This document shows positions 34,090 to 49,893 of a stretch of DNA of 64,000 bases, piece by piece. Position 1 is the first letter of the stretch. Every line of letters starts with the position of its first letter. The translations under genes and the position numbers were made by a program. Source of the stretch: Vicinamibacterales bacterium. GTDB taxonomy: Bacteria > Acidobacteriota > Vicinamibacteria > Vicinamibacterales > UBA8438. Location of the stretch: NCBI GenBank assembly GCA_965116825.1, contig OZ220736.1, forward strand, positions 5,435,888 through 5,499,887. Direction: 5' to 3'. The notes below the pieces were generated by a model. It had not been told where the DNA came from. It was given only the letters and a program-made list of their open reading frames with translations, and ran no database searches.

Positions 34090-34208
34090 GATGTAACCTG
34101 TTGATATGCAAGACGGTTACTAAAATACAGTAGTGGTGTTTACCACGCACGTTACCACGATGTCAGGATCGCGGATGTTGAGGTCCACGTCAGTAACCGT
34201 GTAACCGT
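34090..34208. promoter_or_regulatory. Array of six GGTTAC-core repeats (candidate recombinase arm/att sites) at the left island edge
   Basis: GTAACC at 34093, ACGGTTAC at 34113-34120, TTACCAC at 34140-34146 and 34152-34158, and tandem GTAACCGT x2 at 34193-34208. All lie in an AT-richer 150-bp gap between convergent genes. Confidence 0.35.
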
Positions 34209-34234
34209 TCGGCCAAGCCGGTATCTGGCTGCTT

Positions 34235-35116
34235 CTACCGGTTGAGGGTGCGTTTCCAGTCCTTGCGGAGGGGCCGCAGCCAGATGTCCTTCTTGGGCTT
34301 GTCGGAGCGGTTGTTCATGTTGTAGCGACCGCGCCCCAGGGTGGCGCCGACGCGGATCCAACCGGAGGCCCGGTAGACGGCGCCGGTGTAGCGGGGAGTC
34401 TCCACGAAGGTCTCGATGAGCACGGGGGTCGTCTTGTAGCGCGCGATCCAGTCGGCCGGCAGCTGGCGGCGGACGAGGGCGAGGATGTGCGAGCCGAGGT
34501 TGGGGATGCGGATCCAGGGCAGGATCAGGAAGCGCGGGTTGTCGACGACCAGCGGCAGGTTCTTCTCGCGGTGTCGCCGCGACCAGCCGATGAAGCGGTC
34601 GCGCGGGGCGAGCGTCCAGGCTGCGGTCGAGAAGCCGAGCATGGCCAGCGGCGTGCCGTCGCTCGCGTGCACGGCGTAGCGCATCTGGGCGCCGACCAGG
34701 GTCTTGTAGCCGAGGTAGTGGTAGCGGGCGACGTACTCGTTCCACAGCTTCCCCCCGCGGTCGCCGCGCACGACGGTGCGCATCTCGAGCGGGCGGACGG
34801 CGTCGAGCGTGGTCGGCGGCGGCAAGAGGGGTGGTTCGGTGTCGGGCCCGAAGGTGATCGGCCCGGGCCGGTTCTGGCGCCACTTCGGCGGCGGCAGTTC
34901 GATGCGGCCGTCCCGGTGCATGGCCAGCATGACGACGCGGGCCATCATGTCCTTGTACCCGCCGTCGGCCTTGTACCAGCCGATGCGGCGGCAGAACTCC
35001 TTCGACAGGGCGTGGCGGTTGAGCGCCGGCGGCCCGGCGATCAGCGAGCGCAGCAGCACCATCTCCGCGGTCGTGAAGTCGCGGCCGTAGTAGCGGCACT
35101 CGACCGGAGCGGTCAT
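34235..35116 (-). CDS. DUF4338 (DruA-like) domain protein
   Basis: ATG at 35114-35116 (MTAPVECRYYGRDF...). YHYLGY, RYAV, AWTLAPRDRFIGW, NPRFLILPWIRIPNLGS, ETFVE...YTGAVYRASGW..GATLGRGR match the DUF4338 pattern I recall. The start overlaps the stop of the IS66 remnant (ATGA). Confidence 0.85.
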   Translation of the reverse strand: MTAPVECRYYGRDFTTAEMVLLRSLIAGPPALNRHALSKEFCRRIGWYKADGGYKDMMARVVMLAMHRDGRIELPPPKWRQNRPGPITFGPDTEPPLLPPPTTLDAVRPLEMRTVVRGDRGGKLWNEYVARYHYLGYKTLVGAQMRYAVHASDGTPLAMLGFSTAAWTLAPRDRFIGWSRRHREKNLPLVVDNPRFLILPWIRIPNLGSHILALVRRQLPADWIARYKTTPVLIETFVETPRYTGAVYRASGWIRVGATLGRGRYNMNNRSDKPKKDIWLRPLRKDWKRTLNR

Positions 35117-35391
35117 GTCGGCGCCGTCAGTTCGCGCCGGCGCGCCGCGTCCATCGACCAGGGCAGCCACGCCGCGGTGTCGTCCGGCGGCCGGCCGCCG
35201 CGCTCGGCGCAGGCCGCCAGCCACGCTTCGAGCCAGCGCAGGACATCGATCCGGTTCAGCTTCAGGGTGCCGACCACCGAGTACATCAGCGCCGTGAATT
35301 GCGCGCCGGTTCCGCTGTCGGAGCCGAACGACAGGCGCCGTCCGATGGCCGGCCCCCGGAGCAGCCGCTCGGCGAGATTATCCCGGATCAT
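35113..35391 (-). pseudogene. IS66-family transposase, C-terminal ~90-aa fragment
   Basis: DNLAERLLRGPAIGRRLSFGSDSGTGAQFTALMYSVVGTLKLNRIDVLRWLEAWL matches the conserved IS66 C-terminus (NNxAERxLRxxxxGRKNxLFxGS...). An in-frame TAA lies 2 codons upstream, so the DDE core is missing. Confidence 0.7.
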
Positions 35392-35459
35392 GGGTTATTC
35401 CAGACTCGTTTCGGGACCCGCCGATTCGCCACGCCATCGAGCACAAGATGCCGGAATAA

Positions 35460-36272
35460 TCACAAGCTGTTCAGGAACGCCAGGACAATGTCCTGGGGTT
35501 CGTACCTTTTCATTGGGGTCCCGACAGAGGTCGTTCTCGCCATTGCCCGCTCCTTCAGTTCGAGATCCGCATGCAAATAGATGTAGGTGGTCTCGACGGA
35601 TTCATGCCCGAGCCACAACGCGATGGTTGCACGGTCGACGCCGTTGTGAAGCAGTTCCATGGCGGCGCTGTGCCGCAAGGTATGGGGGGTAACCCGTTTG
35701 TCCCCCAGCGACGGGCAGTCCGCCTGCGCGACAGCCAGGTTCCGAGCCAGGAGATAGTCGAAGCTGTCATGCGTGAGCGGCCTGCCGCGCTGGTTTGGGA
35801 AGATCGGGTCACAGGCCTCGCCGCCGCGCTCTGTCAACCACGCGCGGAGGGCCGCGACCGAGTCCCGGCGCAGCGGGATCGAACGCTCCTTCCGCCCCTT
35901 GCCGTGACAGCGGACATGAGCGCCGTCACCAAAGCGGACATCGCCGCGGCGCAGGCCGATGATCTCCGAACTCCGCATACCGGTCTGCAGCGCCACCAAC
36001 AGCAAGCAGTAGTCGCGTCGCCCGACCCAGCTGGTGCGATCCGGTGCCCGCAGAAGAGCCTCGCTCTCCTCGCGATTGAGGAAGGCGACCTCTCGTCGGG
36101 TATAGCGTTTGGTCGGTATGGCCAGAACCCGTTGAGCCAGGGCTGCATGGTGCGGCTCGTGCAGGGCGACATGAGCGAACAGGGACCGGATTGCAGCCAG
36201 GCGGGCATTGCGGGTACGGACGTCGTTGCCACGCTCATGCTCAAGATTCGTCGAAGTAGGTGCTGCAGACAA
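35460..36272 (-). CDS. Tyrosine recombinase/integrase, catalytic domain intact but N-terminus truncated
   Basis: LEHERGNDVRTRNARLAAIRSLF...RRDYCLLLVALQTGMRSSEI...GKGRKERSIPL...TPHTLRHSAAMELL...LGHESVETTYIYLHAD. The C-terminal ...YEPQDIVLAFLNSL tail resembles recombinase-in-trio type enzymes (from memory). The upstream part abuts the IS630 insertion. Confidence 0.75.
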   Translation of the reverse strand: MSAAPTSTNLEHERGNDVRTRNARLAAIRSLFAHVALHEPHHAALAQRVLAIPTKRYTRREVAFLNREESEALLRAPDRTSWVGRRDYCLLLVALQTGMRSSEIIGLRRGDVRFGDGAHVRCHGKGRKERSIPLRRDSVAALRAWLTERGGEACDPIFPNQRGRPLTHDSFDYLLARNLAVAQADCPSLGDKRVTPHTLRHSAAMELLHNGVDRATIALWLGHESVETTYIYLHADLELKERAMARTTSVGTPMKRYEPQDIVLAFLNSL

Positions 36273-36425
36273 GATTGGTGCTCGCCGCGCGCCGCTCCGC
36301 CCCCAACTGCTGTTTCAGGTGCTCGCGCTGGTCGTCGAGTTGCATACGCACGCCGGCCTGCACTTGTACCACACGGGGGCTCTTGTGTCTGTACCGGAAT
36401 CGGAACACGCCACGAATTTTCCGGG

Positions 36426-37514
36426 CTAGTGTCCTGTATCTAAAATCCGTTCGCAGTAGTGCTTGAGCGACGCCAGGATTTGGTCGGCCGTCTTGGTCCA
36501 GATGAACGGCGCGGGCTGCTCGTTGCAGACCGCCAGATACGCCTCGATCGCCCGTTCGAACTCCGTCGTGCTCCGGTGGGTGCCGCGCCGGATCTGCCGC
36601 TCGGTGAGTGCGGCGAACCACCGCTCGACCTGATTGAGCCAGGAGGCGCTCGTCGGCGTGAAGTGCAGGTGGAACCGCGGCCGGCGGAGCAACCACTCGT
36701 GAATCATGGCCGTCTTGTGCGTGCCGTAGTTGTCCAGGACGAGATGGATGTCGAGTTCAGCCGGCACCGCCGCGTCAATAACCGCCAGGAACCGGCGAAA
36801 TTCTACCGCCCGGTGCCGCCGGTAGCACTTCCCGACCACTTTCCCGGTCGCGACGTTCAGCGCAGCGAACAGCGACGTGGTGCCGTGCCGCCGATAGTCA
36901 TGCGTGCGCCGCTCCGGCACGCCGGGCCGCATCGGCAGCACCGGCTGCGTGCGGTCCAGCGCCTGAATCTGTGCCTTTTCGTCGACACACAGCACGACCG
37001 CGCGCTCCGGCGGGTGCAGGTACAGCCCGACGATGTCACGGATTTTCTCCACAAACAGCGGGTCCTTCGACAGCTTGAAGGTCTCAGTCCGATGCGGCTT
37101 CAAGCCAAACGCCCGCCAGATGCGGCTCACCGTCATCGCGCTGAGGCCGCAGGCCTCAGCCATCGCTCGGGTGCTCCAATGCGTCGCCGCCGCCGGCAGC
37201 GCTTCCAGCGTCTGCACTACCACCCGCTCAACGTCGTCATCCCCGATGCGCCGCGGAGCGCCGGGACGTGGCGCGTCGAACAATCCGTCGCAGCCGGCCT
37301 GCACGAAGCGGCGCCGCCATTTGCCGACGGTCTCGCGCGTCGTACCCAGGTCGTGCGCCACGGCCAGATCGCTCCCGCCCTCGGCGCACGCCAGGACAAT
37401 GCGCGCGCGCGACGCCAGCGCCTGCGACGTCTTACTCCGGCGCAGCCAGCGCTGCAGTTCCTCTCGTTGGTCGGCCGACAACGCCGGAACCTGTCGCGTG
37501 TGGTGGTTCGCCAT
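36426..37514 (-). CDS. IS630-family DDE transposase
   Basis: ATG at 37512-37514 ([13 protein letters not shown]...). HTH region, then VDEK...LDNYGTHK...NQVERWF (DDE). The TAG stop (36426-36428) is made of the TA duplication plus one flanking base. Confidence 0.9.
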
Positions 37515-37590
37515 CCACGGCCCTCCCTGGCCCGGGAGCGACCGTACCACAATCGACATCCACAGAGAAGACATTTACGATACAGGACAC
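36429..37590 (-). mobile_element. IS630-family insertion sequence, copy 1 (1162 bp) with TA target duplication
   Basis: Terminal inverted repeats GTGTCCTGTATC (36429-36440) and GATACAGGACAC (37579-37590). They are flanked by TA at 36427-36428 and 37591-37592. Confidence 0.85.
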
Positions 37591-37617
37591 TAGACTAACT
37601 GCGGCGATTTGTGCTCC

Positions 37618-37735
37618 TGACTTTTCTGGACAAGCGCCGGGCGCTGCTCAACGCATGGTCCGAGTTCCTTGCCGGCGACGTCGCGGTCTTCGCCGAGGGC
37701 GGCCTCAGCCTGTGTCCGACAACACGGCATGTCGG
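37618..37735 (+). pseudogene. 3'-terminal fragment of a P4-type integrase gene (inverted copy of 53795-53908)
   Basis: It encodes TFLDKRRALLNAWSEFLAGDVAVFAEGGLSL, against TFLDKRRALLDAWSEFLAGEVAVIAEGGLSL at the end of the intact int. The ~115-nt alignment has about 10 mismatches. Confidence 0.7.
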
Positions 37736-38139
37736 CGTCGAACCTGCTTCGGTGATCCACTTCTCCCGCTACAGCTTCGTCCTTGCAAGTCGGTCAAGTT
37801 GATCCTGCATGGGCCAGTATGGGCCAGCTATCATCCTGGACCGGGGGGTCCGTCATGGTGTGCACGGCTTCCGATGCGGTGACCGCGTACACCTATTATT
37901 TACAGATATTTACGGCCAAAGAGAGCGCATCTCCCCTCGGCGTATCCCTCGTTTGGTGTTGGCTCGCAGCGGTTCAAGATCTACGGCCCCGGACGACCAC
38001 GGACCGATTACTTGCGCTGCCACATGCCGTCCTTTTCGCCGCCGCCATCGGCCGTCGCGGGGCCGTGGTAGAATGGGCGGGAGTGCGACGAGGAACCACG
38101 TGCCGGGCTACACTGTAGGGTTGACGGGGTTGACCAGCC

Positions 38140-38400
38140 ATGTCTGATCGGCCAGCGATCCGGGCCGGACAGTGGATAGGTGTCGGCAACTGTGACTGCG
38201 TTGTAGCTGGGGTTCGGCCACCTGGACATGCTCTCGGGGACTGTGAAGTCGTCCATAGCCCGTCGAAACCAACCAACACGGATGTCGTATGGGATGGCGA
38301 TAGATGGAGATTTGTTCATGACTACGGTGGTGGATACGCGGATAGGTATTCACGCTTGGCCGATTATGTTCGCATTCTGAAGAGTGGACGCCCAGGATAA
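38140..38400 (+). CDS. Hypothetical 86-aa protein
   Basis: ORF MSDRPAIRAGQWIGVGNCDCVV...RWRFVHDYGGGYADRYSRLADYVRILKSGRPG. Its TAA overlaps the ATG of the next gene (TAATG at 38398-38402). No recognisable family. Confidence 0.4.
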   Translation: MSDRPAIRAGQWIGVGNCDCVVAGVRPPGHALGDCEVVHSPSKPTNTDVVWDGDRWRFVHDYGGGYADRYSRLADYVRILKSGRPG

Positions 38401-39080
38401 TGATGTCTTGGAACCGAACACGCCGATTGGGATCGCTGGTAGCAGGTGCATCCCTGCTCGCTTGGGCCACCCTTGCGCTCGCCGCGCCGCTGGCTGGCCA
38501 ATCGGCTTCGGACGCGGGTGATTTCGGCGACGACTCCAGCGCATGGGCCATCGACGGGGTCTGCGACGATACGCGATTCATCGGCGATCGCGGGGCCGGG
38601 GCATGGACTGGTAACGGTGACCACGTCGGAAAGGATGCGACGGACTGCCGGAACCTCCTGAACGCGGGCCGTATTCGGTGGGGGACTGTCTCCGAGAACA
38701 TTGAACGCTTCCAGCTCTTCACTAGGTGCCAGCAGCTAGAAATCACCGTGTTTGTGCAGGGCGACCAAGCGGGCGAAATCGACCTCACCGAGGAGCGCGT
38801 CCGAACGATGGTGGAGAGTCGATTGCGGGCCGCGCGGCTGTACGCTTCACGCGACGGCGTTCCGTTTCTGGAAGTGAACATCTTGACGCTTGACGACGGC
38901 CCGGCGTTCGTGAGGCAGATCCAGTTGGCGAAGTGGAACCGTGACGACGAGACCGGATTGGAGCGGGGGAGCTTCACGTGGGAGAGTCTCGGCTATGGCA
39001 CACACGGCGGGGATGCGGGCTTCATCATGCAGGGGCTCTCCGAGGACCTAGTGTCCTGCCCGACAAATGCCTTTACATAA
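38400..39080 (+). CDS. Secreted hypothetical protein, 3' end disrupted by IS630 copy 2 at nt 39050
   Basis: Signal peptide LVAGASLLAWATLALAAPLAGQ. The native sequence ends at ...GLSEDL. The last 10 codons (VSCPTNAFT) are read from the IS inverted repeat. Confidence 0.55.
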   Translation: MMSWNRTRRLGSLVAGASLLAWATLALAAPLAGQSASDAGDFGDDSSAWAIDGVCDDTRFIGDRGAGAWTGNGDHVGKDATDCRNLLNAGRIRWGTVSENIERFQLFTRCQQLEITVFVQGDQAGEIDLTEERVRTMVESRLRAARLYASRDGVPFLEVNILTLDDGPAFVRQIQLAKWNRDDETGLERGSFTWESLGYGTHGGDAGFIMQGLSEDLVSCPTNAFT

Positions 39081-40229
39081 TGAGCCGCCCTGTGCCACCC
39101 TCTTCTGGTGGGAGGGATGCGATGGCACGTCCGATCTCGGTACTGGAGGTGACTCCCGAGGAGAAACGAGAGCTGGCGCGTCGGGTCGCAGCCTCGACGA
39201 CGTCGGCGCGTGACTGCCTCCGGGCGCACATCGTGCTGCTGCGGAGCGAGGGTGTCGGACAGCAGGAGGTAGCGTCGCGCTTGGGCGTGAGCGCCCCGAG
39301 CGTGAGCAAGTGGTCGCAACGCTTCGATCGAGAAGGGCTTGACGGCCTCAAGGACCAGCCGGGCCGCGGACCCAAACCGTCGATTCCACTGGGCACGGTC
39401 CGGCGGGTGGTTGAGGAAGCGGGCAAGGCGCCGCCGGGTCGGCAACGCTGGAGCACCCGCTCGCTGGCCCAAGAGGTCGGCATTTCGGCAGACAGCGTGG
39501 CGCGCATCTGGCAGAGCCAAGGGCTGAAGCCGCATCGCCTGCGCACCTTCAAGGTGTCCCGCGACAAGAAGTTCGAAGAGAAGTTCTGGGATGTGGTGGG
39601 TTTGTATATGGATCCACCCGAGAGGTCGCTGGTGCTGTGCTGCGACGAGAAGACGCAATGCCAAGCCCTGGAGCGCACGCAACCGGGCCTGCCGTTGGGC
39701 CGCGGTCATATCCGGACCCGGACACACGACTACATCCGGCACGGCACGGTCACGTTGTTCGCGGCCTTGAGCTACCTGGAGGGCAAGCTGATCTATCGCA
39801 CCGAACAGCAGCACACGCACGTGGAGTGGCTGCGTTTTCTCAAGCAGATCGACCGCGAGACCCCCGACGACGTGGACCTGCACCTGATCGCCGACAACTA
39901 CTGCACGCACAAGCACGAGAAGGTGGTGAGTTGGTTGCAGAAACACCCGCGATTCCACATGCATTTCATCCCGACATCGAGCTCTTGGATGAACATGGTG
40001 GAACGATTCTTCGCGGACCTGACGCAGGACTGCGTGCGCGCGGGGAGCTTCGCGAGCGTGGCGGAGCTGGTCGAAGCCATCGTGACCTATCTTGCCAGTC
40101 GGAACGAGAATCCGAAACCCTACCAGTGGAAGGCGGACGGTGCGAAGACGCTGGCCAAGATCCAGAAGGCTCGGGAGGCTCTTGAGAAGGCCTGTCACGT
40201 TATATAAACCTAATTGCCGGGCGGGACAC
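39051..40229 (+). mobile_element. IS630-family insertion sequence, copy 2 (1179 bp) with TA target duplication
   Basis: Inverted repeats GTGTCCTGCCCGACAAATGCCTTTACATAA (from 39051) and TTATATAAACCTAATTGCCGGGCGGGACAC (to 40229), about 24 of 30 matching. Flanking TA at 39049-39050 and 40230-40231. Confidence 0.85.
39122..40207 (+). CDS. IS630-family DDE transposase
   Basis: ATG at 39122 (MARPISVLEVTPEEKRELARR...). CDEK...ADNYCTHK...NMVERFF. By eye it is roughly half identical to the copy-1 transposase. Confidence 0.9.
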   Translation: MARPISVLEVTPEEKRELARRVAASTTSARDCLRAHIVLLRSEGVGQQEVASRLGVSAPSVSKWSQRFDREGLDGLKDQPGRGPKPSIPLGTVRRVVEEAGKAPPGRQRWSTRSLAQEVGISADSVARIWQSQGLKPHRLRTFKVSRDKKFEEKFWDVVGLYMDPPERSLVLCCDEKTQCQALERTQPGLPLGRGHIRTRTHDYIRHGTVTLFAALSYLEGKLIYRTEQQHTHVEWLRFLKQIDRETPDDVDLHLIADNYCTHKHEKVVSWLQKHPRFHMHFIPTSSSWMNMVERFFADLTQDCVRAGSFASVAELVEAIVTYLASRNENPKPYQWKADGAKTLAKIQKAREALEKACHVI

Positions 40230-40629
40230 TAGATATAGATTCATCCTCGAGTACCTGCGCGTGAACGAGGGCTTCTGTTAACTCTGCCTCGTCGAAGGAG
40301 TGGTAGTGGGCCGAGGCGTACGAGCGGCGGCAGCGATTCTCGATTCCAACGTGGTGATCTCGGTCCGGGTTTCGGCGATGCCGGCGTCGAACATATCCGG
40401 CGTGACGTGCTTGCCGTGCTCGGCGGCTTTGCCGGATTGGCGTCGGCCAAGGCGTCGGCGTGTCCACGGTCGCTCTCGGCGTCTGTCAACCGTCGAGCGA
40501 TGGTGAGTGATCGAACATCGGACCTACCTAAAAGGTCCGTCAACATCGTCATCGACCAACGACAGTATACCGTGCGGCTGACAGCGGCCAACGCCGGCCG
40601 CTGTGGAGCCTTCCCGCAGGGACACCTTC

Positions 40630-40719
40630 GGAGGGGAGCGACCCGACCCGGCAGGTGTGACAGCGGAACACCCGCCGGGGCCGGAAACCGCAGGTTTTCG
40701 GCAAGGTCGCTCCCCTACC
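40630..40719. other. Y-shaped (three-way-junction) inverted-repeat structure, possible structured RNA
   Basis: Outer 12-bp perfect stem 40632-40643/40705-40716, plus 2 bp more after a 1-nt bulge. It encloses hairpin A (40648-40657/40669-40678, 9 of 10 bp) and hairpin B (40680-40689/40693-40702, 10 bp including one G-U). Confidence 0.3.
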
Positions 40720-40922
40720 TCCCGCTTGGCCCTTTTCTCTGTACGTGGGGCATCGCTCGGTTGCCGCCTCGTGCCGTGCCAGTCGCGGGGCCTGCGCGTC
40801 CTGCATCGTCCGGCCACAGATGGGCGGTGTCCCGAATCCTTGCTCCATACGCGGGCAGTCACGTCCGGAAGCGAATGGTATGGACGTCTCCCGCTCACTG
40901 ATGCCAGGAGGCGAGGGCCGAG

Positions 40923-41204
40923 ATGGACCCTCGCGGGCTGTATGCGATAGATGCGACGACCATCGACGTGTGCCTGGCGGCCTTTCCATGGGCGTCGTTC
41001 CGGCGCACGAAGGGCGCCATCAAGCTGCACGTCGGCCTGGACCAGGCGGGGCATCTGCCGAGCTTTCTCAGCGTCACGGACGGCAAGGCGGCCGATGTGA
41101 CGGTGGCCCGCACGTGGACGTTCCCGGCAGGCAGCGTGGTGGTGGCCGACCGGGCGTATCTGGACTTCGGGTGGCTGCATCGCCTGCAGGAGCAGGGCAC
41201 ATAG
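40923..41204 (+). pseudogene. IS4-family (DUF4372/DDE_Tnp_1 type) transposase, internal fragment
   Basis: LYAIDATTIDVCLAAFPWASFRRTKGAIKLHVGLDQAGHLPSFLSVTDGKAADV...VVVADRAYLDFGWLHRLQEQG matches the conserved ALDSTTIDLCLSxFPWAxFRxxKxAxKxHTxLD...DRGYxDFxxL block. A stop lies just upstream and at 41205. No C-terminal half. Confidence 0.75.
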
Positions 41205-41208
41205 TAAA

Positions 41209-41560
41209 ATGAGGGGATCTCTGAGGGACAGCAGTGGAACCTGGTGGATCACGGCCGCAGAGCAGCGCATCGCCGACTCGGGGAACTCCCTGTCGGATGT
41301 CGCCGACCGGGAGGCCACGGTGAAGGTCTGCGGCGTAGCCGTGGCGATGCTGCAGGGGCATAGCTGGGCGCCGACCCCCGTCGAACGGTTGGCGAGTGAA
41401 CGTGGGAACCATCCCGTCGGTCCCTCCCCGTCGTCTGCAGATGGCGGATGGGGAGGTCCGTCGCCGGCTGACGCTGGCGGGATGGGGCGGAGGACCCGTA
41501 GTAGTCCGCGGTCGGGAAAGCCGGCCACATGGCGAAGGGGTCCAGCGTGTACCTGAGAGA
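41209..41560 (+). ncRNA. Group II intron 5' ribozyme fragment (part of domain I to domain III / start of domain IV); no RT ORF, no domains V-VI
   Basis: 41497-41552 reads CGTAGTAGTC...ACATGGCGAAGGGGTCCAGCGTGTAC. From memory this nearly matches Ll.LtrB CGUAGUAGUC...ACAUGGCAAAGGGGUACAG...GUGUAC. There is a 10-bp hairpin at 41423-41432/41447-41456. The extent upstream is uncertain. Confidence 0.45.
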
Positions 41561-41622
41561 CGTAGTAATGAAAGTGTTCCAGGCGACAAGCAATCGGACT
41601 GGATAAGTACCCGGAGTGAAGA

Positions 41623-42786
41623 ATGCAGAACTGGCCACGGTGCCTATATCACGCACACCACGATGAGAGAACATACAAGTCAGCGAGCGACGTGCCGACG
41701 GACAGAGAGGGGTGGACAGACACGCCTGACAAGGTGGGAAACCCCGAGAACCCGAAGGCCATTGAGTGGTTAGAGGGCAAAGCACGCGCCGACGACGACA
41801 ACGTACTCCCAATCGAGCAGAATCACTGTCCAATTTGGGGGACTTTTGCGCAGCACACGCAGGATGCACCGGCAAACAGCGAGGAAGGGAACGATTACAC
41901 AGTCGTAATCTCTCCACGGGCCGGCGGGCCCTACCGGATTCACACTAGAGACATCGCAAGAATAACAGGATACGCCGCGAGACTAACGCTGGAAGAACGG
42001 GCCCGAATCACAACGTACTTGAACCGCCAGCGGACAACAGGGAACCAGGATCCACGCCTCACTGTTAGCGCAATGAACGGTGCGAGAACGAATACGCCAA
42101 GCTCCGTAGGAGAAAGAGCCAGAACGTTGCTGCATTTCATCGCGGAGACAACCCGGAACCGGATCGGTGAACGGTTCACCTACTGGAACGGATTTCGGGT
42201 TTCGGGAAGCGCGATTGCACACTCAGAGTCTACGACCTTTACCGAGGTGGTTTATCTACTCGAGTACTTGAAGGAGAAAGAACACATACGCGAATATGTA
42301 GTCGGACACGGCAAGATGTATGCGATTACAGTGCAGGGCTATGCGGAGTTGGAGACAACACGAACAACGACAGATCGAAAGAATGAAGGATTTGTGGCAA
42401 TGTGGCTTAGCGAAGAGCTCAACGAGGCCTACGAGAACGGAATCCGGGCCGGGATCAAAGACGCGGGATTTACACCCTTCCGGGTAGACAAGACAGAACA
42501 CAATGACAAAATTGACGACCTTATCGTGGCACAGATCCGTAAATCCAGATTTGTAGTAGCCGACTTTACATCGTGCGATGAAAAGGGTGCGAGAGGAAGC
42601 GTCTATTTCGAAGCGGGATTTGCGATAGGGCTTGGAATTCCGGTCATCTTCTGTTGCAGAAAGGACTGGCTGCAGAAGGTTCACTTCGATACACGGCAAT
42701 ATAACCACATAGTGTGGGAAGACAGCAAGGAGCTCCGGCGGCGTCTCAGACATAGAATTGAGGCAACCATCCGACAAGAGCGGTGA
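41623..42786 (+). CDS. Hypothetical protein: unknown N-domain + winged-helix-like segment + C-terminal nucleoside 2-deoxyribosyltransferase/TIR-like Rossmannoid domain
   Basis: 387-aa ORF, GGAG 8 nt upstream, about 53% GC on a spot count. C-terminal FVAMWLSEE...IDDLIVAQIRKSRFVVADFTSCDEKGARGSVYFEAGFAIGLGIPVIFCC fits the NDT-like pattern (sD-hvvAd...NVYyElGyA..lGkPVI) with the conserved Glu. VVYLLEYLKEKEHIREYVVGHGKMYAITVQGYAELE looks like a wHTH. Confidence 0.8.
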   Translation: MQNWPRCLYHAHHDERTYKSASDVPTDREGWTDTPDKVGNPENPKAIEWLEGKARADDDNVLPIEQNHCPIWGTFAQHTQDAPANSEEGNDYTVVISPRAGGPYRIHTRDIARITGYAARLTLEERARITTYLNRQRTTGNQDPRLTVSAMNGARTNTPSSVGERARTLLHFIAETTRNRIGERFTYWNGFRVSGSAIAHSESTTFTEVVYLLEYLKEKEHIREYVVGHGKMYAITVQGYAELETTRTTTDRKNEGFVAMWLSEELNEAYENGIRAGIKDAGFTPFRVDKTEHNDKIDDLIVAQIRKSRFVVADFTSCDEKGARGSVYFEAGFAIGLGIPVIFCCRKDWLQKVHFDTRQYNHIVWEDSKELRRRLRHRIEATIRQER

Positions 42787-43033
42787 ACAGCCACGGTGGC
42801 CACAGCGCAGAGTGGAGACGGTTCTTGTCGCGGAGCGGTCTGACGCGCAGGCAGCTGCCAGCCAGGGAGCGCATGAACTCGCAGGTGAACGATCTGCCGT
42901 CGGTCGCACTGACCGCGAAAGTTCCTGGTCCTGTGCGAGCAGTACGGCGCGGAACGTCTCGCGGTGAGGATCGTTGCGGCCGGCCGCAGCGCCGGAGTGC
43001 CCGGGTTGCCGCACGAGACACTTGCGACCGGCG

Positions 43034-43294
43034 TCACTGCTCGCGGCCGCTACATGGTGCCATTGCGGTGCTGTCGGCCCTCCTGACCCCGGTGGTGACG
43101 CCAAGCGTGACCTGCTTGGCTGACTTCAGCTCCGCGCGGCCTCGCAGCCGATCTCTCCACGCACCATCGTCATCGACCACCCTGGAGCGACGCAACTCCT
43201 CGTCCCAACACGTCGGAATGTCATGCGAGAGCACAACCGGATCGGCCAGCTTACCGGTGGTCAGCGAGCCCTTGAGACCTTCGTCGGAGGTGAG
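43034..43294 (-). pseudogene. Amidohydrolase-family C-terminal remnant
   Basis: Minus-strand frame reads ..DEGLKGSLTTGKLADPVVLSHDIPTCWDEELRRSRVV.., like the GSLExGKxADLVVLDxD...E.L....V tail of metal-dependent amidohydrolases. It is preceded by tandem in-frame TAG TAG (43295-43300). Confidence 0.35.
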
Positions 43295-44324
43295 CTACTA
43301 GCGTTGCCCAAGGTCAGAGACCACAGTGCATCCTCCCGGCTGATGTGCTTCCGCGGACCGAACATGCAGCGCGAGATCGTGTCGAGCGTGCTCGAAGTGA
43401 TACAGGACCTGGAGCGGTGGGAACGGTACGACCAGCGAATCTCGACCGAGGCTGACGGCGATGCCGTGGTCCAGGAAGGGCCCCCAGCGTCGTGACGCGC
43501 TGGGTGCAGGGTGGCGCCCCAAATTCTGCTCGCGGCTCGGACCGGCCATGTAGAAGATGCTCCGCGGCGAGATCGAGGTTGAGCTCCCGGACTCGCGCGA
43601 GCCGGTCGGCCGGGGTAACGAACCGTGCTCGATCATCCAGCGGCGAGCGCGGATTGCCCGCCTCGCGTCGGCCGCTTGGCGTGGCGTTCGGTGCGGAAGC
43701 CGCCGACATCGGCCAACGGCCTTGTTCCCAATGGATTTCCATGAACGCCCGCGCGCGGCCATGACCAATTCGGTGTGCAATTCTGGTCCGGATTCTACGA
43801 GCCCACCTGGGCCAGCTATGGACAGGAACAGGGACCCATCGCGAGGACGCCCGTCGCGTGGAATCAGATCCCTTGAGCAACGGCACAGCTCGCCCCGACA
43901 GCCCCGTCAGCACGTCATGCCTGACCTCCTTCTTCCCAGTGTCACCTCGGAAACGGTCAGTTGAAGTCGACTCTGCCTCCAGTGGCGGCGGGACGGCGCA
44001 GCTTGGTCCCGTGTGCCGTGCGAAGCCGAAGGCGAGCCGTGCGGCCCCAGGTCAGCATTCCCGGCTGTATGGGGATGAAGTCGGTGACGACGCGAGTCGG
44101 CGCCCGGCGATGCGGGCTCGGCGAGCCCCTTCCTGCGGTCCGATAGATATAGATACAGCCGCAGTGCAGAGACAATCGAAAGACCGGCCGATTTCCGCCC
44201 GGCTGGACATCCGGGGCACAGCCGAGCTACAGTGCAACGTCGTGAAGGGCACAACACGATATGAGTTGCGGCTTCTCGCGGAGTAAGGCGTTGAGAAGCA
44301 TCCCGGAGGCTGAAGGACTGCTTC

Positions 44325-46220
44325 ATGACCATCATGGAGATCTCTGAAAAACTGGCGGCGGCTCGCGAAGAACTGACCCGCGACGCCGCAATACGCCTGC
44401 TAAACGATGCGCTGAACGCGGCTTTAGGAGAGAATGACTGGCAGTACCTTCTCTTGAGAAGCCGTATCCACTCCGCTCTGGCACAGGAAGCTGATACACC
44501 CGGAGACAGGACCCGGTACTGGGAAGACTCCCTAGCCGTTCTCCGTACGGCCACAGAGGGGCGCACCGATTACCGTCTGGCCGCGGGCTTTGCCGAAGTC
44601 GCCGTTGACTGTTATCAGGACACGCTCAGTGATATGTCTGCCAGAGACAAGAGGATCGCTCTGAAACAAAGCGCGCAGGTCGTCACATCAGCGCTCACAC
44701 GGTGGCCGAATAGCCCGGAGCACGGAATTCTGCTGGCGCGAAAATCCTCACTATTGCGCCACCTCGCTCTGACAGAGTCAACGCAGTTCGCAGCGAAGAG
44801 TCTCATCGACGAGTCCCGTAGATGTGCAGACCGCGCTACACGATACAACAGTATGGATCCATCAACGCTTCTGGAGTACGGGCTGTCGATCTGGGCGGCC
44901 GCTCGGCATGCAACGTCAGATCGAGACTACAAGAACCGCCTTCGCGAGGCCGAAAAGTACCTTACAGAGGAGTCGGTGGCTCAGACAGATTCGGGAAGGC
45001 TAGCTTTGTCGCGCCTTTATCGACTTACGTTCCAGCCTTTCAATGCGTGTCGTGTATTCCCAAGAAATCTTAGAGATAGACGTTGTCTACTGCGCCACGC
45101 CCACATTTTGGCGGAAGCAGCGACGATGCTTTGGTATGCTAAGTATCCAGGGCAGGATGTTGATGGTTACCTGGGGGAGGCCCGAGAACTGCTGGAAACG
45201 ACTCTGAGTGCTGGCTACAGGGACGCCCGTACGGTCGTTGCGCTGGCGTACGTTGTAGCGATTTGCGACAGCAGTGCAGAGGGAACTAGAACGGCTTTAC
45301 AAGAGATCTGCGGCGGGACAGGAATAGACTGGCAAGCACTTATCAACCTAGTGCAGTCACCGACAACCATCTCCGAGCAGGCGCTCGCGCTCGGCATTAA
45401 CGACAGCGGCGTATGGACACGACTGGGAACTCTCGCGAACGACTTTCTGAAGGACGACAAATTGGCCGAACGGTTGTATAGAACTGCAGTCAAGCTACGA
45501 GGGCGGGATGCAATAGCCTGCACGAACCTAGCTAGATTTCTTTCGGCGCGCGGTGAGTATGATGAGGCGCGTCGATTGGTTCAGAGGGCAAGCCAGTTCG
45601 CGGACCGTCGCTTTACTTGGTGGCGCGCTGTACAGGACGCCCTCTCAAAACCGGTGAGCGCACCCGCAGGCGGGCGGTCTTTTGGCAGTAAGTCTCTCGT
45701 TGACATGAGGACGTTGCAATTGAAAGACTTGCGCAAACGCTTTCGCACTCTAGACGAGGATAGCGACGTCACTCCTCAGCGGCGGGGTTATGAACTGGAA
45801 CGTCTTGTCCACTGTATGGTCGAACTCACTGTTGGGGTGTCTAGCGCGAGCGGCTCGTACCGTATGCCCGCGCCGGGTCGTCAACAGGTCGACGGCTTCT
45901 TCATGTTGACATACCGCAGGGACTATAGGTACGAGTGCAAGTGGACGAAGCATGCTGCAACCAGAGCAGATATCGCGACTTTTGTGGATAAGTTGGATGC
46001 ACACAACGTGGGCGGCCTGTTTATTTCGATGGCCGGCTTCGAGGACTCTGCAATTGCCAAAGCACGCGAAGTGGCGAACAAAAAGGTGATCCTGCTGGCG
46101 GACGGCGATGACGTGCGCTGCATATTCGAATTGAAGACACATTTCGACGAGATGGTTATTCGAAAGCAACAGTATTTTTCGTGGAAAACGGTTTCCTACT
46201 ACAAGGCTAGTTGTAGTTGA
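44325..46220 (+). CDS. TPR-like helical-repeat protein with C-terminal Mrr-type PD-(D/E)xK restriction-endonuclease domain
   Basis: 631-aa ORF, about 48% GC on a spot count. The N-terminal ~480 aa are alpha-helical and TPR-like (...LAERLYRTAVKLRGRDAIACTNLARFLSARGEYDEARRLVQRA...). C-terminal RGYELERLVHCMVEL...QQVDGFFML...YRYECKWTK...GGLFISMAGFEDSAI matches Mrr_cat (GxxFE..., D, ExK). Confidence 0.85.
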   Translation: MTIMEISEKLAAAREELTRDAAIRLLNDALNAALGENDWQYLLLRSRIHSALAQEADTPGDRTRYWEDSLAVLRTATEGRTDYRLAAGFAEVAVDCYQDTLSDMSARDKRIALKQSAQVVTSALTRWPNSPEHGILLARKSSLLRHLALTESTQFAAKSLIDESRRCADRATRYNSMDPSTLLEYGLSIWAAARHATSDRDYKNRLREAEKYLTEESVAQTDSGRLALSRLYRLTFQPFNACRVFPRNLRDRRCLLRHAHILAEAATMLWYAKYPGQDVDGYLGEARELLETTLSAGYRDARTVVALAYVVAICDSSAEGTRTALQEICGGTGIDWQALINLVQSPTTISEQALALGINDSGVWTRLGTLANDFLKDDKLAERLYRTAVKLRGRDAIACTNLARFLSARGEYDEARRLVQRASQFADRRFTWWRAVQDALSKPVSAPAGGRSFGSKSLVDMRTLQLKDLRKRFRTLDEDSDVTPQRRGYELERLVHCMVELTVGVSSASGSYRMPAPGRQQVDGFFMLTYRRDYRYECKWTKHAATRADIATFVDKLDAHNVGGLFISMAGFEDSAIAKAREVANKKVILLADGDDVRCIFELKTHFDEMVIRKQQYFSWKTVSYYKASCS

Positions 46221-46301
46221 TTCGTGCGTCGCAAGAAGGCGCCATTCTTCAGCGGGTGCGAATCCAGCGCGGCAACTGGGCCATAGAGAAACTCACGGTG
46301 C

Positions 46302-46730
46302 TCACTGACTCAGGCGGTTCTCACTTCGACCTCGCACTCCAGGGTCCTGCAGACGCCGGAGGAGGTGCTGGGTGATGCGGTGCTTGTCGCGGTTCGCCAG
46401 GTACCGGCCGCCGAGGTCGTGGTAGTCCGTCTCGTCGCCGAGCATGAAGTAGGCGGCGGTCCGCATGGAAGCGGCGACCGCCACGATGGCCTTCTCCCGG
46501 GCCGCGCCGGCCCTTCAGGGCGCCGAAAGTGGGACTGCAGATACCTCCCGTTCTTCCGCGTCGTCGCCCACGCGGCCTGGACCAGCACCGTCTGTAGCCA
46601 CGGCGTCGCGTGACGGATCCGGGGGGTCGAGCGGCGCTTCCCCGCACTCTCGTCGAGGCGCGGGCACAGGCCCGCCCACGAAAAGAGATGGCCCGGACGG
46701 GAAATGACGCATTTCATGTTCCACATCCGG
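46302..46730 (-). pseudogene. IS110-family transposase, C-terminal (Transposase_20) fragment with frameshift
   Basis: FSWAGLCPRLDESAGKRRSTPRIRHATPWLQTVLVQAAWATTRK is in one frame. ...AVAASMRTAAYFMLGDETDYHDLGGRYLANRDKH... is in another. The N-terminal DEDD domain is absent. Confidence 0.7.
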
Positions 46731-46820
46731 TCAGACAAAAGGGCCCAAGCTGCGATCCCTGGACAGGTGTTCGGCGTCAACTACTTTTGCCGGTCGACGA
46801 CAATTATTCTTGCCGGCGCG

Positions 46821-47126
46821 CTAGCCGTCACGCCCGAAGCCCCTGGGCAGCTCGACGGCCTCCAGTACCGACAGATCCAGATCGCAGACCTGCTCGAGCA
46901 ACTCCGCGGTCGCGGACCCGTCAAGCGATTCCGGCAACGCGTCCTGCCACTGTCGGTACTGTTCCTGCAACTCCAGGAGCGTCTGCACCGCGTCGTTCCA
47001 CTGCTGCGGCCGCGATCTCCGGTCCGCGGGCCGACGGTACCGGATCCGGGATTCGCCGGCCTTGCTCCGCTCCCGGTACCGTGCCTGCCGCTCCGCGTTC
47101 GTCAGCGCCACACGACTATCCTGCAC
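46821..47126 (-). CDS. Small conserved hypothetical protein often seen on mobile elements
   Basis: VALTNAERQARYRERSK...RYRRPADRRSRPQQWNDAVQTLLELQEQYRQWQDALPESLDGSATAELLEQVCDLDLSVLEAVELPRGFGRD resembles a recurrent plasmid/island protein (recollection only). GTG start at 47124-47126 proposed. The track ORF begins at 47345. Confidence 0.45.
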   Translation of the reverse strand: MQDSRVALTNAERQARYRERSKAGESRIRYRRPADRRSRPQQWNDAVQTLLELQEQYRQWQDALPESLDGSATAELLEQVCDLDLSVLEAVELPRGFGRDG

Positions 47127-47482
47127 CGTTACGTAACGGACCGCGGAAGCGGTCGGCCGAGCGATCGAGACGCAAGGGTGGCGACAGACCCACCGCTCGG
47201 TTGCCGTCGGCATCGGTGTATGCGTGCACGTTGGTCCGCGACAGCGGAGCGGCTCCCCAGCGCCGCACTTCCGGGCAGTCGAACGTGGGCCAGTCTTCCG
47301 GCTGGCCCGCAAGGGCTTCCCGCACGCTCGGCCACAGGCAGTCACCCGAAGGGCCGGAGCGTAGCGGAGGACCCGCGCAGCGGGTTGACGGCCTGTGGTT
47401 GAGTGTGCGCGAGGTAAACGTTCCGAGTGCAGCGAGGGCCTTCATAACCGCCAGCTCGCCGATGTCTCGGACTACACAGGTT

Positions 47483-48304
47483 TCAGGAAGCAGCGGGTCG
47501 ACGGCGCCGCGGCAACAGCGGACCCGGCGGACGGCCACGACGTGCTGGCGGTGGTGATGGCGCCGGCGACGTCGGCCGCGACGGGTCAGTTCGATAGCTC
47601 GGCACGTCGAACTCGAGTACCACCGAGTGGTGTACCAGCCGGTCGATCGCCGCGGCAGTGGCCATCTGGTCGCGGAAGATCCGGTCCCACTGGCTGAACA
47701 CCAGGTTGCTGGTCACCATCACCGAGCGTCGCTCGTAGCGCTCGGCAAGCAGCGTGAACAGCACCTCGGCCTCGTCGGGACTCTGCTGCACGTAGCCCAG
47801 GTCGTCGGCCAGGATCACCTCAAAGAGGTCGAGCTTGCGCAGTGCCCGCGGCAGGTCGAGGTCGCGTTTGGCGCCGAGCAATTCCTGGACCAGGGCGTAG
47901 GCCGGCACACACAACACGCTGTGGCCGGCTTCGACCAGCGCGTGCGCGACCGCGCACAACGCGTGGCTCTTGCCGACGCCCGGCAGACCGAAGGCAAGCA
48001 CATTGGTCGCCGTCTCGAGGAACGCTCCGGTCGCCAGCGTCTTCAACTGCTGTACGACCGGCCCCGGTAACCGGCCCGTGTCGAGCGTCTCGAACGTCTT
48101 GCCGGGCGGCAGACGCGATGCTCGTCGCAGCCGGGCAATCCGGCGCTGGCGGCGTGCCTCGGCTTCGGCCTCGAAGACTTCCAACAGCACCGGCAGCGCG
48201 TCGTGGTGACCGGCCTGCGTCAATCGCGGCACCAGCTCCTCGGACGCCGTCGTCAGGTTGAACTGCGTCAGCAGCGTCGTCACCTGCGTGCTCGGTGCCG
48301 TCAT
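47483..48304 (-). CDS. istB: IS21-family helper ATPase IstB
   Basis: ATG at 48302-48304. Walker A GLPGVGKSH, Walker B ILADDLGY, and ...ERYERRSVMVTSNLVFSQWDRIF...AAAIDRLVHHS. Confidence 0.9.
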   Translation of the reverse strand: MTAPSTQVTTLLTQFNLTTASEELVPRLTQAGHHDALPVLLEVFEAEAEARRQRRIARLRRASRLPPGKTFETLDTGRLPGPVVQQLKTLATGAFLETATNVLAFGLPGVGKSHALCAVAHALVEAGHSVLCVPAYALVQELLGAKRDLDLPRALRKLDLFEVILADDLGYVQQSPDEAEVLFTLLAERYERRSVMVTSNLVFSQWDRIFRDQMATAAAIDRLVHHSVVLEFDVPSYRTDPSRPTSPAPSPPPARRGRPPGPLLPRRRRPAAS

Positions 48305-49893
48305 CCTTGCAGGCCTCCGGTCAACAGCGCGTCGTACCGCGTCAGGTCCGGCCGAGGGATGTTCACCACGGGAATGGTTGGGACCGGCGGACTCACCTCG
48401 GCCTGGACGCTGGCATAGTCGCACGCGACGCCGGCGTCGAGTCGGGCCCGAAGCGTTGCCTCGACCTGTCGTTCACTGGTCGTGGCCGCCAAGTGCAGCA
48501 GCCGCACATACTCGACGTCGGCCCGCTCGCCGTGCGTCCGCCCGAGCGCGTCATACGCCGACCGGAACGTCAGCGACGGAAACAGCTCTTCCCGGAAGCG
48601 ATACCGGGCAAAGGCGCCCGGCTTGCGGACCAGACTCCCGATGATATGGCGATACTCGATCCGGTGGTCCGCCGAGCCCCGCAGCCGTGGCATCGTGCAC
48701 AGCACCCGGCCGCCGTAGAGGACCTCGACCGTCGACGGATGCTGGCGCGCTTCGACCGTGTGACCGATCAGGCGCGACGGCACCGAGTAGATCCGGCTGC
48801 CGATGCGAATCGTGCTCCACTTGCGCACCCGGCACTGGAACGTCGTGTACTCCGGGATCCGCGCCGCCGGCAACGGCCGCAGAGACAGACGCTCCTCGGC
48901 CAGCCGAGCCGCCGCCGGCCTGTTCCGCTCCTCGTCGACGACCGCACGCACGAAGCCCAGATACGCCGACTCGTCCGCGAAGTCTCTGTCGCCCCGCAAC
49001 AGCAACGCCTGCTCGATGGCCGTCTTCGTGCGGAAGTGCGCCTGCTCGGCCACCCCGTTCTCGTGCGGTTTCCCCGGCTGGATCCGCGACGAGTCCAGCC
49101 CGTAGTGGTCCAGCACCTGCCGGAACCGCGCCGTCAACTGACGCCCACCGCTGCGTTTCAGCTCGTGCGTCGCCGCCGACAGGTTGTCGTGACGGAGCAC
49201 TGCCGGCACCGCGCCCAGCATCCACAGCGCCCCCTGCAGGCCCGCCACCAGCGCCTCGAACGTCTCGCTCAGCGCCAGTCCCACATACGTCCACTTGCTG
49301 TAGCTCAGCACCCACTCGAACAGCAGGTGCGCGAACGGCACGCCCCGGATCGTCACCCGCAGGTCGCTCGCGTCGGTGAAGTCGAACGCCGCTTCCCGGC
49401 CCGGGACCGCCACCTGCTCGAAGTACACCTCGCGGTCCGCACCGTACTGCACCCGCCAGTCGCGGACCCGCCGCTGCAGCGTCCGTAGCTGTCCCTCCTG
49501 AAAGCGACCCGGATGCCGCCGGCACAGCGCCTTGAACAGCGTCAGCACCTGCAGCCGGCCGTCGGTGTCGGCCACCAGCTGCGGCACCACCTCCGACTCC
49601 CACACCTCGGCGAACGGGTCTTCCCGCGTCCGCCACGTCCGCGGCCCCTTCGCCGTCGACGGCAACGCGCCGCTCTGCCACTGTCGCGCTGTCCGCTCGC
49701 TCATTCCCGCGGCCGCCGCGGCCGCCGCCAACGTCTTCCCCGACATCCGTTTCTCTCGCAATCGTCGAACCTGCGCATCCGTGACCAACCCGTCCTCCAC
49801 GAGGAAAACGGGCAGTCTCACACGACTCTGGGTGGGTCCACGAACCGGCGATCGCGTCCTCGGCAACCGGCAGAAATAATTGTCGTTGATCAC
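48301..49893 (-). CDS. istA: IS21-family transposase IstA
   Basis: 530-aa ORF. HTH (MSERTARQWQSG), DDE core (DFTD...HDNLSAAT...PHENGVAEQAH), and the C-terminal region typical of IstA. The actual start may be internal. Confidence 0.9.
   Translation of the reverse strand: MINDNYFCRLPRTRSPVRGPTQSRVRLPVFLVEDGLVTDAQVRRLREKRMSGKTLAAAAAAAGMSERTARQWQSGALPSTAKGPRTWRTREDPFAEVWESEVVPQLVADTDGRLQVLTLFKALCRRHPGRFQEGQLRTLQRRVRDWRVQYGADREVYFEQVAVPGREAAFDFTDASDLRVTIRGVPFAHLLFEWVLSYSKWTYVGLALSETFEALVAGLQGALWMLGAVPAVLRHDNLSAATHELKRSGGRQLTARFRQVLDHYGLDSSRIQPGKPHENGVAEQAHFRTKTAIEQALLLRGDRDFADESAYLGFVRAVVDEERNRPAAARLAEERLSLRPLPAARIPEYTTFQCRVRKWSTIRIGSRIYSVPSRLIGHTVEARQHPSTVEVLYGGRVLCTMPRLRGSADHRIEYRHIIGSLVRKPGAFARYRFREELFPSLTFRSAYDALGRTHGERADVEYVRLLHLAATTSERQVEATLRARLDAGVACDYASVQAEVSPPVPTIPVVNIPRPDLTRYDALLTGGLQG

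Follow-up and report, generated by a model that had tools for sequence, protein, structure and literature searches.

The present analysis concerns a 64,000-nucleotide stretch of contig OZ220736.1 (assembly GCA_965116825.1) from a Vicinamibacterales bacterium, referred to below as the window, and in particular two large open reading frames (ORFs) within it, here named A and B, both of which are intact and lie on the plus strand of a decayed island. An earlier reading of the same DNA, made from its letters without database searches (the sequence-only reading), had singled out these two ORFs as a candidate defense module consisting of a winged helix-turn-helix (wHTH) protein with a nucleoside 2-deoxyribosyltransferase (NDT)/TIR-like domain and a TPR protein with an Mrr-type nuclease; the coordinates, strand and intactness that it gave are exact. 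The features of the locus that bear on both proteins are as follows.

41623-42786, plus strand: gene A, an intact ORF of 387 aa encoding a stand-alone wHTH and NDT/TIR-like protein
41623-41817, plus strand: A residues 1-65, an N-terminal extension with the motif LYH...GWVD.P.K, seen in the alignment in a subfamily only
41818-42192, plus strand: A residues 66-190, a small beta unit with the motifs CPIW and SPRAGG.Y, then helices (alignment, model)
42193-42372, plus strand: A residues 191-250, wHTH (model, Foldseek)
42385-42783, plus strand: A residues 255-387, NDT/TIR-clan Rossmannoid domain, with Glu330 at 42610-42612 (Pfam, PADLOC, Foldseek)
42787-44324, no strand assigned: the 1.5-kb spacer, with no recognizable gene or RNA
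44325-46220, plus strand: gene B, an intact ORF of 631 aa encoding a stand-alone protein with a TPR array and an Mrr_cat nuclease domain
44325-45647, plus strand: B residues 1-441, a TPR-like superhelix that presumably serves as the sensor (model, Foldseek)
45774-46187, plus strand: B residues 484-621, Mrr_cat PD-(D/E)xK nuclease (Pfam, conserved residues)
46210-46220, plus strand: rearrangement junction within the last codons of B (comparison with contig L005)

The GC content is 53.3% in A, 55.5% in B, 65.3% in the spacer between them and 68.4% in the whole window, and a ranking of 500-bp windows across the 64 kb by GC places the 12 lowest within A or B. The claim that the window reaches its lowest GC in these two genes therefore stands, whereas the figure of 48% previously given for B was too low. 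The motifs quoted for both proteins were found in place, RGSVYFEAGFA with Glu330 in A and QVDGFF...YECKW with D523, E537 and K539 in B, the codons of which were checked.

An AlphaFold model of A, built with 49 homologs (mean predicted local distance difference test, pLDDT, of 85.6), contains a five-stranded Rossmannoid domain preceded by a wHTH composed of helices 191-200 and 206-218 and strands 222-227 and 230-235, for which Foldseek matched TubR and MepR. Glu330 is invariant and in the model lies at the start of the helix (325-336) that follows the third strand (310-314); R324, G325, Y328, H354, D356, T357 and Y360 are likewise invariant across the alignment. The best Foldseek matches of the Rossmannoid domain in the PDB are NDTs, SPARTA TIR-APAZ, the CMP N-glycosidase BcmB, DNPH1 and the TIR domain of SARM1 (6qai, 2a0k, 8pqt, 7o62, BcmB and DNPH1 are among the top entries), and the structural matches in BFVD comprise a CMP/hmCMP hydrolase, an NDT and pycTIR. 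Both features expected of an NDT, a Rossmannoid fold and a Glu in the catalytic position, are seen in A, the former in the model and the latter in the alignment. At the sequence level, A scores 19.9 bits against the Pfam family Nuc_deoxyrib_tr (PF05014, clan Nribosyltransf), below the cutoff of 28.8; PF05014 was matched by 45/49 members of the A family at E<=0.01 (best 3.7e-6) and TIR_2 by 3/49. The sole significant PADLOC match of A is to "Effector TIR" (3.5e-8), in which residues 282-376 match the TIR region of a single CBASS effector model. A itself matched none of DUF4062, TIR_2 and the TIR-like Pfam families, the NCBIfam scan of A returned nothing, and the A-family profile matched no PDB chain at E<0.3. 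Judged by these comparisons, A is a divergent relative of NDTs, not a bona fide member at the Pfam cutoff. The wHTH and the NDT/TIR-like domain with a catalytic-type Glu, as previously proposed for A, are supported by the model, by Foldseek, by the family-wide Pfam matches and by the invariance of Glu330.

The remainder of A is less uniform. The N-terminal extension is common to P0002-P0005 (P and L numbers are our identifiers of proteins and of loci or contigs) and about one third of the homologs, while most others begin near residue 66. Residues 66-190, in which C69, W72, S97, R99 and G102 are conserved, form what is presumed to be a fast-diverging sensing region: prophage relatives of A keep the ~320-aa size, yet they can be aligned with it only from residues ~127-235 onward, that is, in the wHTH or Rossmannoid part, which indicates that the N-terminal region of A diverges fastest.

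The A family is large, comprising at least 2,053 clusters at E<=1e-3 in a word-indexed search, and the species-representative genomes that carry its members number at least 584 and span many phyla. Forty-nine matches lie on viral contigs, and phrog_16139, a PHROG without assigned function, was matched at 3.3e-48; the phage GenBank records searched contained no relatives of A. Plasmid-borne relatives carry the RefSeq name "nucleoside 2-deoxyribosyltransferase". Genomic neighborhoods were compared in the best 80 A-family loci with 10-kb flanks, in which all ORFs were clustered. The recurrent neighbors were HsdS (13/80 loci), HsdR (11/80), N6_N4 methylases, some with HNH (10/80), HsdM (9/80), HEPN-type NTase_sub_bind proteins (7/80) and Type ISP enzymes (4/80), and recurrent neighbors of the restriction-modification (R-M) type were present within 10 kb in at least 29/80 loci. 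In nine of the 80, the genes follow the order hsdM-(HEPN)-hsdS-A-hsdR on a single strand, with 4-bp reading-frame overlaps in several. A Pfam census of 113 immediate neighbors gave N6_Mtase, Methylase_S, N6_N4_Mtase, Polbeta, UvrD helicase and Type_ISP_C as the commonest families. The close homolog P0004 directly follows a 943-aa methyltransferase in an island with UvrD, AAA and S8-peptidase genes, the remaining closest full-length homologs lie amid insertion sequence (IS) elements, and a Leptospira plasmid copy adjoins a SEFIR protein. No conserved partner of the A family emerged from the 80 loci, the top non-R-M neighbor cluster being present in just four of them. A conserved small ORF 3' of A and of its three closest homologs was considered as such a partner and rejected, the four ORFs being non-homologous.

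Several further observations concern the hosts and operons of A homologs. An NTase_sub_bind (HEPN-type) gene is located between hsdM and hsdS in the A-bearing type I operons L015, L050, L056, L059, L065 and L080; with a HEPN-type gene beside an A homolog in the same operon, one type I operon can host two embedded passengers. Polbeta nucleotidyltransferases account for 5/113 immediate neighbors. Nearly all hosts of the best 80 loci are metagenome-assembled genomes of Dehalococcoidia/Chloroflexota, Latescibacterota, Poribacteria, Poriferihabitaceae, Vicinamibacterales, Binatia and Alphaproteobacteria, many of which resemble sponge-symbiont or soil lineages, and one Poriferihabitaceae genome carries two copies of A (L037, L074).

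The AlphaFold model of B (pLDDT 87.4) is all helical over residues 1-441; a disordered linker then leads to an alpha/beta domain (484-621). Foldseek matched 168 TPR superhelices at E<=1e-3, among them OGT, SKI3, TTC7 and IFIT1. Mrr_cat (PF04471) was matched with 21.1 bits by the full protein and 24.2 bits by the isolated C-terminal domain, against a cutoff of 21, and by 14/14 relatives of B (best 1.8e-7). The nuclease residues are E490/E492, D523 (45891-45893), E537 (45933-45935) and K539 (45939-45941), of which D523, E537 and K539 are near-invariant across 26 sequences. The whole-protein Foldseek search was dominated by TPR matches, so the nuclease fold is deduced from Pfam and the conserved residues; a profile of the nuclease domain found nothing significant in the PDB. 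B has no Walker A motif (GxxxxGK[ST]) and no NTPase Pfam match, and its residues 1-441 contain no beta strands. The architecture of TPR repeats joined to an Mrr_cat PD-(D/E)xK domain, as read earlier from the sequence, is borne out by the 441-aa superhelix and the above-cutoff Mrr_cat match.

Relatives of B numbered 26 in the word-indexed search and 180 clusters at E<=1e-30 in an exhaustive profile search, and many of them join the same N-terminal module to other domains. TIR_2 (P0150) or PNP_UDP_1 (P0189, P0197) may stand ahead of the whole TPR-Mrr protein, and the B-type sensor is combined with SIR2_2 in P0224, with PRTase-CE in P0226, with a C-terminal TIR_2 in P0260 and P0280, and with HTH_31 in P0230. 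The added domains match the PADLOC models of ThsB, ThsA, CBASS PN-superfamily and retron PRTase effectors, while the B-type sensor itself matched nothing in PADLOC v2. Exchange of this kind is characteristic of a sensor that lacks an NTPase and can take different effectors. P0150, P0189 and P0197 carry two effector-type domains per protein, an N-terminal TIR_2 or PNP_UDP_1 and a C-terminal Mrr_cat, around the TPR sensor. Members of the B family stand alone in varied surroundings with many defense genes: among nSTAND3-Mrr_cat, AbiH and CBASS (SAVED, CD-NTase and patatin) genes, beside a type II R-M pair (methylase and MutH/MvaI-like), or beside an ABC-3C-like SMC ATPase, HerA, a second Mrr_cat protein and a MORC-like HATPase. 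No recurrent neighbor was found outside near-identical contigs, and no relative of B was present on viral contigs (IMG/VR).

Searches with tblastn for each gene in the loci of the other gave no evidence of a shared system. Homologs of B were absent from the 80 A-family loci with their flanks (0/80) and from five further ones (0/5), including the three closest homologs, and homologs of A were absent from the B-family loci (0/32); the A-B pair was met only in near-identical copies of the present island. The headline of the sequence-only reading, one module formed by A and B, does not hold against these counts (0/85 A loci with B, 0/32 B loci with A). That homologs of A and B never co-localize had been named in advance as an observation that would refute it, and this is what was found; both families occur in defense contexts. 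The spacer provided no link between the genes either: Pfam searches with its 10 ORFs gave insignificant matches only, Rfam and tRNA scans were empty, the ORF at 43298-43780 (minus strand), which shows a codon-position GC signal, has no homolog. A promoter and terminator scan did not exceed shuffled expectation.

What A and B do share is their vehicle, which is described by the following feature.

34193-46210, no strand assigned: mobile block carrying a DruA-like ORF, a tyrosine integrase, IS630 copies, a DDE fragment, A, the spacer and B

Contig L006 is 99.96% identical to window positions 31623-52779, and contig L005 (3743-14588) is 99-99.9% identical over 34193-39051 and 40224-46210, with flanks that differ on both sides; the IS630 copy at 39051-40224 is absent from L005. 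These comparisons suggest that the ~12-kb block was recently transferred or transposed, and the presence of the same block amid different flanks in L005 identifies A and B as co-passengers on a mobile, IS-bombarded island.

A two-gene module in which A senses or signals, for example through a nucleotide-derived signal, and B executes as a nuclease would agree with the position of both intact genes on the same strand, 1.5 kb apart and with similarly low GC in a decayed island, and with their joint travel in the 12-kb block. However, the pair is confined to near-identical copies, with no co-occurrence in the 85 A-family or 32 B-family loci, and the spacer differs in GC and lacks a gene. In addition, no domain of B is known to bind a signal, the sensor being the TPR array, and its relatives carry other effectors of their own within the same protein. 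The module is largely refuted by the lack of co-occurrence, and we regard it as highly improbable; adjacent intact low-GC genes in a decayed island do not by that fact constitute a system. The caveat attached to the sequence-only reading, that the genes could be two independent single-gene systems, is favored by the lack of co-occurrence and of conserved partners. We consider it probable that A and B are independent single-gene anti-phage candidates, carried as cargo of one IS-ridden, integrase-bearing block and not working together.

For such independent systems, the substrates, the triggers, the abortive outcome and the defense phenotype itself can be envisaged as follows. In A, the variable N-terminal region and the wHTH may sense a phage cue or keep the enzyme inactive, and the C-terminal NDT/TIR-like domain would act as an N-glycosidase with Glu330 as the nucleophile, cleaving the glycosidic bond of NAD(P)+ or of a nucleotide; depletion of this essential metabolite would abort the infection. 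By analogy with PrrC, those relatives encoded between hsdS and hsdR would probably stay silent with an intact type I R-M complex and be released upon its inhibition by a phage. A tblastn search with HsdR/M/S, type ISP and N6_N4 methylase queries found no R-M genes in the 64-kb window, so A would here have to sense infection by itself. In B, the 441-aa TPR superhelix would bind a phage protein, and this binding, probably via oligomerization, would activate the C-terminal Mrr-type PD-(D/E)xK nuclease to cut DNA, an Avs-like action without a STAND NTPase, as in Dsr1.

Comparison with known systems provides the frame for these proposals. The sequence-only reading had not recognized the combination as any named system, and in agreement with this PADLOC v2 matches neither the A nor the B family to one; for either architecture the literature searched, with newer catalogs (3,231 embedded families; Payne et al., 2024) outside the comparison, offers analogies only. 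The earlier statement that a SIR2/Macro, CD-NTase or STAND partner is lacking is also supported. Neither A nor B gave a ThsA/ThsB match in PADLOC or has such a neighbor, as would be expected for Thoeris, and the genes called between ~10 kb 5' of A and ~6 kb 3' of B include no CD-NTase of a CBASS system. Defense surroundings are seen in both families, in the form of R-M genes and of CBASS, AbiH and SEFIR neighbors.

The closest parallel to A in composition is the type II-A3 effector of Retron-Eco1 (Ec86), which combines an NDT-like domain, located in its N-lobe, with a wHTH (bioRxiv 10.1101/2023.08.16.553469) and hydrolyses NAD(P)+ or consumes adenine nucleotides (PMC12673091; bioRxiv 10.1101/2023.08.16.553469). 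Its size is akin to that of the ~320-aa A-family core, and the catalytic Glu is E106 in the effector and E330 in A. The domain order, however, is reversed, with the NDT-like domain N-terminal in the effector and C-terminal in A (wHTH 191-250, NDT-like 255-387), and retron effector structures are absent from the Foldseek top 50 of A. A decayed retron beside A was considered and rejected, with no reverse transcriptase-like Pfam match in the flanking ORFs and no Rfam family in the window; among the 80 A-family loci, reverse transcriptases were likewise absent from the commonest immediate-neighbor Pfam families and from the annotated recurrent clusters.

In terms of gene position, the parallel is PrrC, which is encoded within a type IC locus and acts as a guardian of R-M, fired when T4 Stp inhibits EcoprrI (PMC12707154). 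The slot hsdM-hsdS-X-hsdR of the PrrC/EcoprrI locus is held by the A homolog in the nine loci described above, on one strand and with overlapping or abutting frames, and time and again a gene lodged within a type I operon has turned out to be a defense (PMC11411939; bioRxiv 10.1101/2024.01.29.577857). PrrC consists of an ABC-ATPase and an anticodon nuclease, to which A is unrelated in sequence and fold, and in contrast to PrrC, A itself and most of its homologs are located outside type I operons. Swarozyc/DUF4062, SPARTA TIR-APAZ and pycTIR resemble A in having a Rossmannoid TIR/NDT-clan domain, a catalytic Glu and an auxiliary sensing domain, and Swarozyc is a single-gene system based on a DUF4062 TIR-like NADase (bioRxiv 10.64898/2026.05.01.722283). 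A differs from the single-protein TIR-like NADases in its sequence affinity to PF05014, not TIR_2, and it has no Argonaute or cyclase partner.

B resembles Avs proteins in carrying an Mrr-type effector and a long TPR-like sensor on one polypeptide, in its residence in defense islands and in effector swapping. Unlike Avs, it contains no STAND or other NTPase, its order of sensor followed by effector is the reverse, and it matched none of the PADLOC Avs models. The logic of an NTPase-less effector with a large helical sensor is shared with Dsr1/Dsr2, as is illustrated by P0224, and the Avs7 sensor is common to the NTPase-less Dsr1 (PMC13581612). The effector of B is, in contrast, a C-terminal nuclease, and the likeness to Dsr is one of architecture; the PADLOC Dsr models were matched neither by B nor by the SIR2 variant, the latter matching the ThsA, LmuA and SIR2 models through its effector domain only.

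Each protein could also serve a function other than the one that we favor. A might regulate transcription in response to a ligand or be an enzyme of nucleotide salvage or base exchange, its wHTH binding DNA and its NDT-like domain binding or processing a nucleoside, for example to control the expression of an R-M operon. Its wHTH, the RefSeq name of its relatives and its location within R-M operons, in which controller proteins are found as well, would be compatible with such a function. We regard it as unlikely, given that the family is spread patchily over many phyla, plasmids and prophages, that the invariant catalytic-type residues (E330, R324, H354, D356, T357, Y360) exceed those of a binding pocket, that the gene occupies the slot between hsdS and hsdR and is not upstream and divergent, and that its neighbors are heterogeneous defense genes, not salvage genes. 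In the case of B, the Mrr_cat domain, the R-M genes among the neighbors and the ability of some helical-repeat proteins to bind nucleic acid, with IFIT1 among the Foldseek matches, would suit a modification-dependent (type IV, Mrr-like) restriction enzyme or another nuclease toxin of a conflict system, the helical N-terminus of which reads DNA or RNA. IFIT1, however, is just one of the generic TPR matches, and relatives of B join the same N-terminal module to NADase-type, PRTase and PNP effectors, whose targets are not DNA, a pattern more in keeping with a generic infection sensor than with a reader of DNA modification; such a restriction enzyme or toxin therefore seems to us improbable.

Several points weigh against the interpretation of A and B as single-gene defenses, or against parts of it. 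The case for a defense role is computational throughout for both families. A stands in this window without an R-M neighbor, which makes the guardian model inapplicable here as such; about two thirds of the A-family loci show no R-M gene, as far as crude clustering can tell, and several neighbors are housekeeping genes (ABC transporters, amidohydrolases). A carries Arg324 where NDTs presumably have a sugar-binding Asp, and this, together with the score below the Pfam threshold, weakens the assignment of an NDT-like substrate. The proposed binding of a protein by the TPR array of B is extrapolated solely from the general behavior of TPR domains, many B-family contigs are shorter than 5 kb, so that the absence of partners there is weak evidence, and the junction at 46210 makes the true C-terminus of B uncertain. 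The last three codons of B lie beyond this junction; B has 631 aa here and 671 aa in the near-identical copy in L005 (P0121, P0147), and other homologs end ~8 aa further on.

The effectors themselves and the sensor-effector logic are of known kinds, while neither family has a name in PADLOC v2 or in the literature searched. Going further, we suggest only tentatively, as a possibility short of probable, that A and B each found a hitherto uncharacterized single-protein immune family, A a new class of NDT-fold N-glycosidase effectors of abortive infection and B an NTPase-less, effector-swapping sensor of phage proteins. If this is true, R-M-embedded A homologs would be PrrC-like guardians and represent a second, enzymatically unrelated way to guard R-M, and B-type sensors would show that Avs-like recognition needs no STAND switch. 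If confirmed, the window would yield two single-gene, experimentally tractable defense candidates, with A adding a stand-alone NDT-fold enzyme to the repertoire of NAD+ and nucleotide depletion. The hsdS-A-hsdR placement offers a handle on whether the guarding of R-M extends beyond PrrC and PARIS. The B-type sensor family, in which natural effector swaps occur on one NTPase-less recognition module, would help to show how an effector can be switched on by ligand binding alone and to identify the sensed phage protein.

Minor observations concern the copies and the surroundings of the block. In L006, a long-read contig of 3x coverage, positions 13237-14605 correspond to ~44859-46227 of the window, and B is split there into calls of 303 aa and 134 aa (P0149, P0148) despite 99.96% identity of the DNA to the window; the split probably reflects sequencing indels, not a real pseudogene. 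The left end of the island carries a 293-aa ORF with a Pfam DruA (Druantia) match (~34235-35116, minus strand) next to the 270-aa tyrosine integrase (~35460-36272, minus strand), both placed by conversion from the gene calls on L006, and no other Druantia genes were seen. Two IS630-type copies (36426-37514, minus strand; 39122-40207, plus strand) and a DDE_Tnp_1 fragment (40923-41204) precede A, and B is directly followed by an IS110-like remnant (46310-46780, minus strand) and then by a complete IS21 (IstA/IstB) with 23-nt terminal inverted repeats (46794-49889). A 107-nt inverted repeat, 93% complementary, has its arms at 37619-37725 and 53800-53906, 16 kb apart, which bracket most of the island, and its outer copy matches L005 and L006 at 93%.

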